Under the pieces are notes generated by a model. That model worked only from the letters and a program-made list of their open reading frames with translations, was not told the DNA's origin and searched no databases. Shown here in pieces: positions 2,283-5,624 of a stretch of DNA of 5,910 nucleotides. Within the stretch, counting starts at the first letter, position 1. Every line of letters begins with the position of its first letter. The stretch lies in IMG/VR virus record IMGVR_UViG_2802429232_000005; one strand, given 5' to 3'. The translations under genes and the position numbers were made by a program. The DNA comes from a virus. Taxonomy: Duplodnaviria > Heunggongvirae > Uroviricota > Caudoviricetes.

Positions 2283-2291
2283 TCCTCTTTA

Positions 2292-2318
2292 AATGGCGCG
2301 TAAACCGCGCCATTTTAT
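2292..2318 (+). terminator. Rho-independent terminator (AATGGCGCG / CGCGCCATT stem, loop TAAAC, T-rich tail)
   Basis: 9-bp perfect stem 2292-2300 / 2306-2314, followed by TTATTA. Confidence 0.7.
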
Positions 2319-2325
2319 TATGCCC

Positions 2326-2392
2326 GATAACAATTTGTTTTCTGCCTTATCTGATTTGTGAAAATGATTTCACTGAAGCAACTTAATAAGGA
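2326..2392 (+). promoter_or_regulatory. Leader module E: GATAAC, AACAA-t-TTGTT palindrome, shared TGCCTTATCT 10-mer, GTGAAA-atga-TTTCAC palindrome, SD AAGGA
   Basis: Palindromes at 2329-2339 and 2358-2373; TGCCTTATCT 2343-2352 is identical to 3042-3051; AAGGA 2388-2392, 7 nt before ATG 2400. Confidence 0.45.
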
Positions 2393-2399
2393 AACCATC

Positions 2400-2774
2400 A
2401 TGGGACTTGATATCTATATCGAGACGCAGCCTAAAAACGATCTGAATAACGAGGTATCCAGAAAGCAGGTTGCTTACTTCCGTAAGTTCAATGCGCTCGT
2501 TGGGTGGATGGAGCGCAACGTAGGTGAAGTCGAAAATTGTGAGCTTTTAGAATTAACGATGAATGACATTTGCCTTCTGAAAGCTCATTTGATGCACATA
2601 AACGAAAGCAATTGCGAAGAGTACTTGCCTACCCGGGAAGGTTTTTTCTTCGGCAGTCAGGAGTACGACGAAGGTTACTGGCATGATGTGGGGGAGTTGA
2701 AAGAGCTTGTGGAAGATCTGATTAAGAACCACGACTTTCACAATAATAGACTGACCTTCTGCGCCTGGTGGTAA
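2400..2774 (+). CDS. Hypothetical small acidic protein (124 aa)
   Basis: ATG 2400 with SD AAGGA. The ORF-track start GTG 2358 lies inside the operator-like palindrome. Hand count about 23 D/E vs 11 K/R. Stop TAA 2772-2774. Confidence 0.6.
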   Translation: MGLDIYIETQPKNDLNNEVSRKQVAYFRKFNALVGWMERNVGEVENCELLELTMNDICLLKAHLMHINESNCEEYLPTREGFFFGSQEYDEGYWHDVGELKELVEDLIKNHDFHNNRLTFCAWW

Positions 2775-2776
2775 AT

Positions 2777-2920
2777 ATGGGCGATTTCAAGAAACGCCTG
2801 AAGGAGAGAGCCGAGATGGTCAGAAAGCGAAACGCCTCTTCTGTCATCAGATACGCAAGGCAGTTTAGTCGCAACAACAAATCAGTTGAGGAAAAGATCC
2901 TTAGCGTAATCGGGCGATAA
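2777..2920 (+). CDS. Hypothetical very basic small protein (47 aa), possibly translationally coupled to the upstream acidic gene
   Basis: ATG 2777 lies 2 nt after the upstream stop, with GGTGG 5 nt upstream. Hand translation MGDFKKRLKERAEMVRKRNASSVIRYARQFSRNNKSVEEKILSVIGR, stop TAA 2918-2920. Not in the ORF track, presumably below its length cut-off. The stop sits 5 nt before hairpin repeat 2926, the same spacing as stop 3391 to hairpin 3397. Confidence 0.4.
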   Translation: MGDFKKRLKERAEMVRKRNASSVIRYARQFSRNNKSVEEKILSVIGR

Positions 2921-2925
2921 TTATT

Positions 2926-2956
2926 AAGGCCACCAGCATTGGTGGTCTTAAATGAC
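2926..2956 (+). repeat. Hairpin repeat copy 1: AAGGCCACCA-gcat-TGGTGGtCTT + AAATGAC
   Basis: 10-bp stem (one G-T wobble) with 4-nt loop; about 90% identical to the copy at 3397-3428. Confidence 0.6.
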
Positions 2957-3041
2957 TTTTAATAACCGAAGGTTAGTTTGAAACCTGGCTATCAACTTCC
3001 AGAACCTTTCTTGTGTATTCAGCCTGTATTAACTTCTTTTA

Positions 3042-3102
3042 TGCCTTATCTACACTGCGATAATTACACCAACAAGAAAACAACATGTTTACGCAGTGAG
3101 GA
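3042..3102 (+). promoter_or_regulatory. Conserved leader module B: TGCCTTATCT, extended -10 TGcGATAAT, AAACA-aca-TGTTT palindrome, SD GAGGA
   Basis: TGCGATAAT 3056-3064; palindrome 3078-3090 (core AACATGTT is perfect); GAGGA 3098-3102, 7 nt before ATG 3110. Confidence 0.5.
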
Positions 3103-3109
3103 TATGCTC

Positions 3110-3391
3110 ATGACTGATTTCACCATTACCCCTAAAGCACAAAATGTATTTCTTGAATCATGGCTGGACTTGCCGGAAACAGAACAGCAAGAAATGGATC
3201 ATGTGGATTATGACGAGCAGGTAAGCACGCGATTCTTCCACTTTGAGGGATGCGTTTACGACATTGTCGACTTCATGCGAGATGACCGCTTCCCTGAATG
3301 GCACGCAAGCTATCCACTAAACGCCTTTGCCATGCTGATGATCCGTGTGGATGATTCAGGGGATACCATCGACATCGGTCTGCTCCACTAA
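3110..3391 (+). CDS. Hypothetical small, strongly acidic protein (93 aa); DNA-mimic-like composition
   Basis: ATG 3110 with SD GAGGA at 7-nt spacing. In-frame ATG 3104 is too close to the SD, and the track's TTG 2978 start would run through the promoter module. Hand count about 20 D/E vs 5 K/R. Stop TAA 3389-3391. Confidence 0.6.
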   Translation: MTDFTITPKAQNVFLESWLDLPETEQQEMDHVDYDEQVSTRFFHFEGCVYDIVDFMRDDRFPEWHASYPLNAFAMLMIRVDDSGDTIDIGLLH

Positions 3392-3396
3392 AGGCT

Positions 3397-3428
3397 AAGG
3401 CCACCAATGCTGGTGGCCTTAAATGACC
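3397..3428 (+). repeat. Hairpin repeat copy 2: AAGGCCACCA-atgc-TGGTGGCCTT + AAATGACC
   Basis: Perfect 10-bp stem with 4-nt loop, 5 nt after the stop codon; direct repeat of 2926-2956. Confidence 0.6.
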
Positions 3429-3520
3429 ATCCTGTTTCCCTCAGGCTAATAACACCAACCTCTTACCTCCAGGCAACCGACAAACCCACCTGTTCCCGTC
3501 CGGCTACCGCAACTTTCCAC

Positions 3521-3588
3521 TTTGACGCCTTATTCGTACAACGATAATTAATACCAACAAGAAAACAATTTGTTATTTACGATAAGGA
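3521..3588 (+). promoter_or_regulatory. Conserved leader module C: sigma70-like promoter TTTGAC-N16-GATAAT, AACAA-t-TTGTT palindrome, SD AAGGA
   Basis: TTTGAC 3521-3526, GATAAT 3543-3548; palindrome 3564-3574; AAGGA 3584-3588, 7 nt before ATG 3596. Confidence 0.55.
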
Positions 3589-4123: not shown

Positions 4124-4206
4124 GCCGCAGGGAAATTTTCAGAAACGGCAAGGAACGCATTCATGAGCCGACGGGAAACGGCCAGGATTTTTTCGGGAAA
4201 CGGCTG
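4124..4206. repeat. Second cluster of GGGAAACGGC-type direct repeats (4-5 degenerate units)
   Basis: cagggaaa (4129), cagaaacggc (4140), aggaacgc (4151), cgggaaacggcc (4172), cgggaaacggctg (4194). GCCGCAGGGAA at 4124-4134 also occurs at 1336-1346. Confidence 0.55.
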
Positions 4207-4666: not shown

Positions 4667-4689
4667 AAAAAAGCGCCCATAGTGGGCGC
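4667..4689 (-). terminator. Rho-independent terminator on the minus strand (GCGCCCA / TGGGCGC stem, loop TAG, T6 on the minus strand)
   Basis: Stem 4673-4679 / 4683-4689 preceded on + by AAAAAA 4667-4672; lies just downstream of the 76-aa gene stop. Confidence 0.7.
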
Positions 4690-4695
4690 TCGATT

Positions 4696-4926
4696 TTATT
4701 TATGTAAACTGATTTCAAATCCCATTTCTACAAACGCTTTTAACATTAAAAATATATCAGCGTCATTCACGTCTGCTTTTTTTCGCTCCTGGTCGCTCAA
4801 TAAGTCAATTTTGCGCGTCGTTTCATCTATAAGCTCGACTGCGCGCCCAGCGTAACCAGCGATCCCAGCGATGCGATTAACAAAATATTCATTGCGCACG
4901 TTAACGCCAGCGATAATCATAAACAT
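4696..4926 (-). CDS. Hypothetical small protein (76 aa)
   Basis: ATG (complement of 4924-4926) with SD AAGGAG (complement of 4934-4939) at 7-nt spacing. Flanked by near-identical terminator hairpins; AT-rich codon usage like the adjacent 216-aa gene. Confidence 0.6.
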   Translation of the reverse strand: MFMIIAGVNVRNEYFVNRIAGIAGYAGRAVELIDETTRKIDLLSDQERKKADVNDADIFLMLKAFVEMGFEISLHK

Positions 4927-4939
4927 GATTAAGCTCCTT

Positions 4940-4960
4940 AAAAGCGCCCATAGTGGGCGC
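4940..4960 (-). terminator. Rho-independent terminator on the minus strand between the 216-aa and 76-aa genes; near-identical to 4667-4689
   Basis: Stem GCGCCCA 4944-4950 / TGGGCGC 4954-4960, loop TAG. On the minus strand it is followed by TTTT and then immediately the AAGGAG SD of the 76-aa gene. Confidence 0.65.
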
Positions 4961-4973
4961 CAGATTCCATTAA

Positions 4974-5624
4974 TTACGCTTTGAAAGCATCAGCCAGATA
5001 GTTATAGAAATCATTTTTAATAAAGCGATATTGCTGCGTACCAGCTTTTGCGCTTCCCATTCCTTTGACTTTCTCAACAAGTCCAAGACGTTCGCAAAGA
5101 TTGATCAACTGGTTGGCTTGAGTATAGCCAGCGTCCAATTTAATTTCGCACGCTTTTTTAGCTTCATTCATTAAATCGAAAACAGCGCCATTAGTGAACG
5201 TGTCGATCTCGTCGTTAATCATATCGATTAAAGCGAATACACGAGATCCTGACATATCAGCGATGGAGTAAACGCATTTACCAGATTTAATTGATTTAAC
5301 CAGATAAACCAGTTTTTCCAGTGAATAACTATTAGTCATTGCATCACGAAAAAATACTTCTGGCGCTTGTTTACTTGCTTTAATCGCATAGTAGAAAACA
5401 GAGCATAATTTTTCATCTTCTACAGCGTTTACAACGTTGTTGATGAAGTAAGCAAGTTTAGTGGTCGCAGCTTGCATATTTGCTTTGTCTGCTTTAGTGT
5501 GCGTACCATTTTTATAATGTTCGTTATATGTTTGAGTTGCCAGATCTGCTTTTTCGCGCAGCTCGTCGGATACAATGGATGCAGCTTCAATGATGGATTT
5601 TTTAGAAATGATAATGTTAGCCAT
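4974..5624 (-). CDS. Hypothetical protein (216 aa), Lys/Ala-rich, AT-rich codon usage; family not recognised
   Basis: ATG (complement of 5622-5624) with SD AAGGA (complement of 5633-5637) at 8-nt spacing; long uninterrupted ORF; terminator directly downstream. Confidence 0.7.
   Translation of the reverse strand: MANIIISKKSIIEAASIVSDELREKADLATQTYNEHYKNGTHTKADKANMQAATTKLAYFINNVVNAVEDEKLCSVFYYAIKASKQAPEVFFRDAMTNSYSLEKLVYLVKSIKSGKCVYSIADMSGSRVFALIDMINDEIDTFTNGAVFDLMNEAKKACEIKLDAGYTQANQLINLCERLGLVEKVKGMGSAKAGTQQYRFIKNDFYNYLADAFKA

Follow-up and report, generated by a model that had tools for sequence, protein, structure and literature searches.

The stretch of viral DNA considered here (IMG/VR record IMGVR_UViG_2802429232_000005, Caudoviricetes), whose full length of 5,910 nucleotides (nt) is referred to as the window, contains two adjacent short genes on its plus strand. 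The first, of 124 amino acids (aa), starts with the ATG at 2400 and ends with the TAA at 2772-2774 (2400..2774); its product is acidic, with 23 D/E and 11 K/R residues, an isoelectric point (pI) of 4.69 and a net charge of about -12. The second, of 47 aa, starts with the ATG at 2777 and ends with the TAA at 2918-2920 (2777..2920); its product is basic, with 14 K/R and 5 D/E residues, a pI of 11.3 and a net charge of about +8.5, and it corresponds to CYRAN_109 of phage Cyrano. An initial annotation of the locus had given these coordinates, the 2-nt gap between the genes and the hand-counted charges (14 K/R vs 5 D/E), all of which proved correct on re-reading the sequence, and had read the two genes as the components of a pair, such as toxin and antitoxin or inhibitor and chaperone. 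The main outcome of the present analysis is that a gap in annotation is corrected and the toxin-antitoxin hypothesis is removed, leaving an ordinary accessory cassette.

Over 99% of its length, the window aligns at 97% identity with plasmid pLF82 of E. coli LF82 (NC_011917.1); the identity is likewise 97% for phage Cyrano (OV696614.1), which is the same molecule as pLF82, deposited separately. Several hundred further plasmids of about 110 kb from Escherichia, Klebsiella, Yersinia and Salmonella, mostly non-mobilizable, also match it, and phage SSU5 matches it more weakly than the pLF82-type plasmids do; because of the pLF82, Cyrano and SSU5 matches, the window can be taken as part of an SSU5-like phage-plasmid. 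Its content is an array of short genes with unassigned functions, nearly every one of them with a promoter-like repeat, GCCTTATC...TGCGATAAT...AAGAAAACAAnnTGTTTA, in front of it and a GC-rich hairpin behind. Among complete E. coli genomes the two-gene cassette is carried by 208 out of 5426 (about 4%), always on a plasmid.

The acidic protein matches the phrog_7971 profile over its full length (residues 1-124 of 124 positions, E=9.3e-87). RefSeq records, annotated with the Prokaryotic Genome Annotation Pipeline (PGAP), place its start at an upstream ATG, which adds window 2364-2399 and gives 136 aa (8304-8714 in locus L001), or even 164 aa in the Cronobacter record P0009. Since the N-terminal MGLD is invariant at residue 1 in 26 family members and a Shine-Dalgarno sequence, AAGGA, is found 7 nt before ATG 2400 (2388..2392, plus strand), the true start is probably 2400, as would also fit the full-length profile match, and the 136-aa version is probably wrong. 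In two IMG/VR loci (L050 and L055) the N-terminus of the acidic protein is altered (ATG to CAT or CAC; G2E) next to an intact small open reading frame (ORF); these changes could be either inactivating variants or sequencing errors.

The stop codon of the acidic gene is followed by the dinucleotide AT and then by ATG 2777, leaving a gap of exactly 2 nt, and this gap is constant while its sequence is not: TAA-AT-ATG is found in 43 loci, TGA-AG-ATG in three and TAG-CC-ATG in one. The sole Shine-Dalgarno-like element of the small ORF is a GGTGG at 2767..2771 on the plus strand, contained in the terminal Trp-Trp codons of the acidic gene and 5 nt ahead of ATG 2777; every junction variant retains it, in Klebsiella it precedes a different gene, of 93 aa, and it may work as a weak Shine-Dalgarno sequence. 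The layout for translational coupling recognised in the initial annotation is therefore borne out, as the 2-nt spacing is kept under three different stop/spacer sequences, and translation of the small ORF is likely to be coupled to that of the acidic one. Indeed, the locus shares with coupled gene pairs of phages and bacteria the stop and start codons 2 nt apart, the Shine-Dalgarno-like element inside the upstream gene and a spacing that is kept while the bases change; it differs from them in the strongly unequal RNA abundance of the two cistrons, and coupling is here read from the layout.

An open frame of 47 codons alone is not significant, and it is conservation that lifts the small ORF above chance. 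In tblastn searches at >=80% coverage it was found in 203 of 203 matching plasmids (196 from Escherichia, 6 from Shigella and 1 uncultured), and it is intact in all of the 47 loci that were fetched from plasmids, IMG/VR and assemblies. Over 18 distinct DNA alleles, none with a stop, the ratio of non-synonymous to synonymous polymorphism (pN/pS) is 0.22, while four other frames give values of 0.9-1.8, and the variable sites at codon positions 1, 2 and 3 number 12, 17 and 31, respectively. The window and locus L008 differ by 18 synonymous and 8 non-synonymous changes, and the E. albertii-type allele has a 3' half rewritten by changes of the type R-to-K, V-to-I and AGC-to-TCA (Ser-to-Ser), with the stop at the same codon. 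The antisense frame sharing the wobble positions has a pN/pS of 0.35, and it is not the selected one, because one allele interrupts it with a stop and the amino-acid replacements in it are radical (mean BLOSUM62 of -1.0, vs +0.58 in the sense frame). For the same reasons, and also for its TTG start and its overlap with the acidic gene, the antisense ORF at 2722-2880 was rejected as a candidate gene.

A more divergent homologue of the small protein (P0084) was identified with HMMER among 1.84 billion representative sequences; it has 44 aa, is 59% identical and has a net charge of +6.5. Its gene is found 2 nt after a 124-aa gene in an SSU5-like contig (L026), where DNA identity is only 61%, while frame and position are kept and the N-terminus differs from that of the window protein. 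Between the window and L026, pN is 0.27 for the small gene and 0.07 for the acidic gene, whose pN/pS is 0.15. These values indicate purifying selection on the small gene, which is evolving several times faster than the acidic one, and at the level of sequence comparison the small ORF is shown to be a genuine coding gene.

The survey of homologous loci, which the initial annotation had indicated as a check, thus gave an intact frame with low pN/pS, and breakage in two rare lineages only. The first is a chromosomal copy in decay (L056), with a degenerate acidic gene and a small ORF interrupted by a stop at codon 16; the second (L057/L058) combines an intact acidic gene with a small-ORF remnant that lacks the ATG, the stop and about 58 nt from the middle. 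These decayed copies show that the frame breaks fast once selection is lifted and that the small gene is dispensable. The same data bear on the possibility that the small ORF is a functionless chance frame, left behind by recombination at the beginning of the 93-aa gene, which in the window lies further downstream and shares with it the start sequence ATGnnnGATTTCA. The first 13 nt of the two genes are indeed similar (ATGGGCGATTTCA vs ATGACTGATTTCA), and the small ORF is absent from Klebsiella and decayed in the two lineages just mentioned. However, this explanation is already contradicted by the substitution patterns, and the signs of purifying selection, the 47 intact loci, the different N-terminus of the L026 homologue and the quick loss of the frame in decayed copies make it the least credible of all those considered here.

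According to the initial annotation, the small ORF was absent from the available ORF track; this is true for RefSeq/PGAP records and does not hold for the ENA record of Cyrano (CYRAN_109) or for PhiR41_1 in GenBank (XSB42484.1). Thus, it is already known that the small gene is annotated, as CYRAN_109, and listed as an expressed hypothetical protein; the present analysis adds evidence that the gene is under selection, narrowly distributed and dispensable, that its junction with the acidic gene is conserved and that its slot can be exchanged. Since PGAP leaves the small gene unannotated, nearly all RefSeq records of these phage-plasmids lack a conserved gene that lysogens express.

Little can be said about the small protein from its relatives: a word-indexed search of 5.8 billion proteins returned only four close clusters, a further HMMER match (P0085, a repeat protein) was discarded as spurious, and no relatives were detected beyond its own narrow family. 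No informative match was found in Pfam, NCBIfam, PADLOC or PHROGs, including toxin-antitoxin and defence families, nor by sequence in the PDB, and no helix-turn-helix or ribbon-helix-helix domain was matched in Pfam or NCBIfam. The protein has no transmembrane segment, and AlphaFold2 run on the single sequence returned one long amphipathic helix with a predicted local distance difference test score (pLDDT) of 81, a model of modest confidence; the proteins of this family, of 44-47 aa, are probably all-helical.

Transcription of the locus can be followed in the RNA-seq data of strain LF82 re-analysed by Misson et al. 2023, who placed CYRAN_109 among the Cyrano 'morons' (PMC9928086 Table 1), with a level in LB 6-fold above the local prophage background (PMC9928086 Table 1, S1 Table). 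CYRAN_109 is the small ORF by sequence, and positions 97,226-97,782 of OV696614.1 correspond to window 2365-2920. Over ten samples, which comprise LB, culture medium and bacteria inside macrophages (PMC9928086), the values of log2(fpkm+5), where fpkm stands for fragments per kilobase per million, range from 5.6 to 8.2 for CYRAN_109, from 2.3 to 5.5 for the acidic gene CYRAN_108 and from 2.3 to 6.1 for the next gene, CYRAN_110 (PMC9928086 S1 Table); normalised counts in LB are 57.9 for CYRAN_109 vs 5.7 for CYRAN_108 (PMC9928086). The RNA of the small ORF therefore exceeds that of the acidic gene by 1.5-5 log2 units in 10 out of 10 samples, with an excess of about 10-fold in LB and of up to 35-fold. 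This excess suggests that part of the expression is independent of the acidic cistron, and it could come from an internal promoter, from a stable 3' fragment that is produced by processing and shielded by the hairpin downstream, or from an antisense signal. The best internal -10 candidate, AATAAT (2742-2747), was rejected, as it reads AATAAC in LF82, the strain in which RNA was measured.

The hairpin in question closes the cassette: it was recovered in a scan for terminator-like structures at 2924..2951 on the plus strand, has a 12-bp stem and is a candidate terminator or RNA-stabilising stem. Its alleles carry compensatory stem changes (GGCCACCA/TGGTGGCC, GGCCATCA/TGATGGCC and GGCTACCA/GGATAGCC), and the RNA from 2760 to 2960 has a fold z-score of -3.3. 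Both features, together with an RNA level 10 to 35 times that of the upstream gene with no recognisable promoter, would be expected if the product were mainly RNA, either a stable 3' fragment or a small RNA ending at the hairpin, perhaps with a dual function in which the protein is secondary. This is nevertheless improbable: the substitutions are of the protein type, with low pN/pS and conservative replacements, frame and length are kept down to 61% nucleotide identity, and no Rfam match was obtained at E <= 1. A predicted long-range helix between the end of the acidic ORF and the end of the small ORF was also rejected, as it is not conserved in the E. albertii-type allele.

Whether the two genes form a pair can be judged from their distribution. 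In 119 Klebsiella plasmids, and also in plasmids of Cronobacter and Enterobacter, the acidic gene is present at 87% identity and the small ORF is absent; in a Klebsiella plasmid (L004, 3370-3395) the 93-aa gene is joined behind it at an identical TGGTGGTAAAT-ATG junction. Its distant relatives, from Macrococcoides, Serratia, conjugative-type plasmids of E. coli and metagenomes, have unrelated downstream neighbours or none close by: a closely coupled small basic ORF was looked for behind the homologues from Macrococcoides and Serratia and behind P0036, and none was found, and in one metagenomic lineage a KlcA-like gene starts 11 nt after the acidic stop. Alleles of the two genes are also reassorted, since L009 and L017 have small proteins that are 100% identical and acidic proteins that are 69% identical, L011 and L005 have acidic proteins that are 98% identical and small proteins that are 79% identical, and in L059 an acidic allele of the 69% type is found together with a window-like small ORF. 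Because the acidic gene often occurs without it, the small ORF looks like an optional add-on, not like half of a toxin-antitoxin-like pair. The two-component reading of the initial annotation is thus not sustained, in view of the acidic genes that lack the small ORF, its decay in L057/L058, the reassortment of alleles, the uncoupled RNA levels and the absence of any family match. As for the opposite charge on which that reading was based, the values of -12 vs +8.5 confirm it, but it is not distinctive, because strongly acidic products are encoded by five of the nine ORFs in the window and basic ones by three.

The strongest competing explanation is a dedicated two-protein module, in which the basic helical peptide would bind the acidic protein by charge and act as its chaperone, adaptor or antagonist. 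It would account for the contrast in charge, which is kept in the divergent L026 pair, for the spacing conserved in three sequence versions, and for the finding that the small ORF, across 203 plasmids and 47 loci, is seen only beside the acidic gene. It is at odds with the acidic genes that stand alone or have other partners in Klebsiella, Cronobacter and distant taxa, with the small ORF decayed next to an intact acidic gene in L057/L058, with the lack of co-variation between alleles and RNA levels uncoupled by up to 35-fold, and with the finding that a basic C-terminal tail fused to the acidic protein is seen in none of the family members inspected (30 sequences read, 26 aligned); such a module is therefore considered possible, although unlikely. 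A toxin-antitoxin pair, with one toxic product and the other neutralising it, is far less plausible. With type II systems the locus shares its two short neighbouring genes, whose stop and start codons nearly abut, and the opposite charges of the products, and the element carries several other toxin-antitoxin systems. Conversely, neither product matches a recognised toxin or antitoxin family, co-occurrence is not strict, alleles do not co-vary but reassort, and natural elements retain the acidic gene alone, as do the 119 Klebsiella plasmids and L057/L058, where the pair is broken with one gene intact.

Upstream of the acidic gene, the region at 2324..2367 on the plus strand is the putative cassette promoter; it contains an inverted copy of the operator-like motif, ATAACAATTTGTTTTCT (2327-2343), followed by GCCTTATC...TGTGAAAAT, an extended -10-like element, and would act as the promoter of the cassette. 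It belongs to a family of promoter-like repeats (885-960, 1408-1444, 2324-2367, 3023-3098 and 3520-3576), each copy of which stands before a short gene. The repeat ends in a partly palindromic motif, AGAAAACAANNTGTT. This motif occurs eight times in 17.8 kb of pLF82, vs 0.05 expected, and with <=1 mismatch it is found in 16 copies in the first 100 kb of Cyrano (L060/L061), vs about 0.3 expected; in Cyrano it is usually located 30-50 nt upstream of start codons, and the genes behind it include those for the small terminase subunit, parA, a DNA helicase, RNR-beta and tciA. On this sequence evidence, the repeat looks like a genome-wide operator/promoter element of SSU5-like phage-plasmids. A gene for a regulator with a Flag1_repress domain is located just to the right of the window.

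A repeated operator-like motif at cassette promoters raises the question of whether the small protein could be its ligand, that is a small DNA-binding autoregulator analogous to Aca proteins. A basic protein encoded downstream of a candidate anti-defence gene, the partly palindromic and repeated nature of the motif, and expression of the small gene in the lysogen, where neighbouring cassettes are nearly silent, would all agree with this. Indeed, the locus shares with acr-aca operons and with the leading-region cassettes of ArdA and KlcA/ArdB the order of a gene for a small acidic protein followed by a small basic gene, and distant acidic homologues are found beside ArdA and Antirestrict genes, as in leading-region anti-defence cassettes. 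Unlike the downstream repressors of acr-aca operons, however, the small protein has no helix-turn-helix or ribbon-helix-helix match; with 47 aa, it was modelled as a single long helix, and neither of the two proteins matches a known Acr, Aca or Ard family. Moreover, Klebsiella phage-plasmids keep the motif at cassette promoters without having the small gene, so that the binder of the motif must be another protein. An autoregulatory role is thus doubtful, if somewhat less so than a product that is mainly RNA.

The acidic family comprises at least 79 homologous clusters with 29-98% identity, characterised by invariant or near-invariant motifs: the N-terminal MGLD, YFRKxN, LPTxxGFFFGSxEYDxxY and a C-terminal aromatic pair; length differences among the inspected members are due to internal insertions. 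AlphaFold2 with the family alignment produced an alpha/beta model with a pLDDT of 94.7 and a predicted template modelling score (pTM) of 0.87. In Foldseek searches this model had a weak, low-scoring fold resemblance to E. coli YfbM (DUF1877) and to DMP12, without sequence similarity; DMP12 of Neisseria is a DNA mimic protein that binds HU (PMC3643605). A fold search of BFVD led to uncharacterised proteins of jumbo phages, a sequence search of the PDB with the acidic profile gave only noise, and Pfam, NCBIfam, PADLOC and PHROGs contained nothing beyond phrog_7971, whose function is unassigned, and no toxin-antitoxin or defence match. Distant homologues are encoded downstream of a plasmid-type integrase and adjoin genes for ArdA, Antirestrict (KlcA/ArdB-like), MPTase-PolyVal and LPD29 proteins; such surroundings are typical of anti-defence or establishment regions.

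On account of its fold and genomic neighbours, the acidic protein might be a protein-binding inhibitor or an anti-defence factor, a role proposed here with low confidence. It has to be set against the conserved residues of the family, which are aromatic residues and glycine and not acidic ones, in contrast to the DNA-like charge pattern of classic DNA mimics. The family is found in phage-plasmids, in jumbo phages and in plasmid leading regions beside ArdA/KlcA, and a more far-reaching proposal can be made, namely that phrog_7971 is a new family of anti-defence or host-takeover effectors and that the 47-aa peptide, expressed in the lysogen, is its dedicated modulator in the Escherichia lineage, which would restrain or target it, the two forming a two-protein module not described before; this is regarded as rather improbable. 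If the acidic family were indeed an anti-defence factor, the locus would be a convenient entry point.

Taken together, the region would be best explained as a two-gene accessory cassette, composed of a promoter/operator element (2324-2367), the acidic gene, the 2-nt gap, the small gene and the closing hairpin (2924-2951), in which the slot right after the acidic stop would be exchangeable and coupled, being occupied by the small gene in Escherichia and by the 93-aa gene in Klebsiella. Ribosomes would most likely reach ATG 2777 by two routes: by reinitiation after termination on the acidic ORF, or by coupling to it, with the GGUGG of the Trp-Trp codons as a weak Shine-Dalgarno sequence, and on RNA that covers the small ORF and either persists or is made independently. 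This separate RNA is proposed because the RNA of the small ORF is far above that of the acidic gene in lysogens. In view of purifying selection, faster evolution, expression in lysogens and the possibility of loss, the small gene is best regarded as an independent, dispensable accessory factor of the 'moron' type and not as an obligate partner of the acidic protein; about even chances are given to this reading. We infer the independence of its function from these same features. The other explanations rank below it in the order of dedicated partner, Aca-like autoregulator, mainly RNA product, toxin-antitoxin pair and chance ORF.

With prophage morons the small gene has in common that it is a short, variable and dispensable accessory gene outside the phage core functions, closed by a hairpin and transcribed in the lysogen above the prophage background (PMC9928086). 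Differently from them, it follows another gene after only 2 nt, and no sigma-70-like promoter from which it could be transcribed separately was recognised in 2600-2776. This lack of a convincing promoter within the 3' end of the acidic gene is one of the points that weigh against an independent accessory gene. Another is that in Escherichia and Shigella the co-occurrence of the two genes is apparently complete, the organism counts being equal in both tblastn searches (196/6/1), and that the opposite charge is kept in the 59%-identical homologue of L026; complete co-occurrence and kept charge would also fit a loose functional partnership. Furthermore, the evidence for the small gene consists of a selection pattern and an RNA level, and its translated product is a predicted one.

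The accessory cassette is bounded on its left by a further hairpin with a T-run at 2291..2319 on the plus strand (AAATGGCGCG-TAAAC-CGCGCCATTTT), which marks the end of the preceding cassette (ORF 1887-2282). On the right side, the closing hairpin has a near-identical copy at 3396-3422, and the two repeat units, 2924-2956 and 3396-3427 (84-96% identity), flank the cassette of the 93-aa gene. The latter is exactly missing from PhiR41-type and several other E. coli plasmids (L003, L011-L014 and L016), and it was likely removed from the PhiR41-type plasmids by recombination between the hairpin copies, because such an event would give a loss of this exact pattern; in E. albertii-type elements a ParDE toxin-antitoxin system is found in its place. 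Thus, the array behaves as a series of exchangeable promoter-gene-terminator modules, and the cassette illustrates how accessory genes are exchanged, both as promoter-gene-hairpin units and through a slot behind the acidic gene that is open to different genes. The start sequence common to the small ORF and the 93-aa ORF (window 2772-2790 vs 3098-3125) suggests, from the sequence, a microhomology-mediated deletion or insertion of the segment with the small ORF, the hairpin and the promoter.

The 93-aa protein (phrog_1845; window 3110-3391; 3378-3659 in L004, WP_121999806.1) is itself acidic and is named 'ABC transporter' in several RefSeq records (H4, H5 and others); this name has no backing in Pfam or NCBIfam and is probably a propagated misannotation. 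A contig of 29.6 kb labelled 'MAG: Bacillota bacterium' (L027, JAEWTL010000044.1) contains a small ORF 100% identical to that of the window; almost certainly this is enterobacterial phage-plasmid DNA that was mis-binned.

Other features were observed in the remainder of the window. A 230-nt tract at about 60-290 is nearly without T on the plus strand and is G-poor, with an AT skew of up to +0.8 and a GC skew of about -0.5; it is rich in ACA/AAC repeats, contains no convincing ORF and no RefSeq gene, and could either give an unstructured RNA or serve for protein binding. Units containing GGRAACGG (37-nt family, D5) cluster at 467-547 and 4167-4203, on either side of the gene array; exact GGRAACGG sites number four in the window, vs 0.28 expected, and are iteron-like. 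Finally, two copies of the hairpin AAAAGCGCCCATAGTGGGCGC (4669-4703 and 4940-4974) flank a 76-aa ORF on the minus strand (4696-4926), as further terminators that bound a module.

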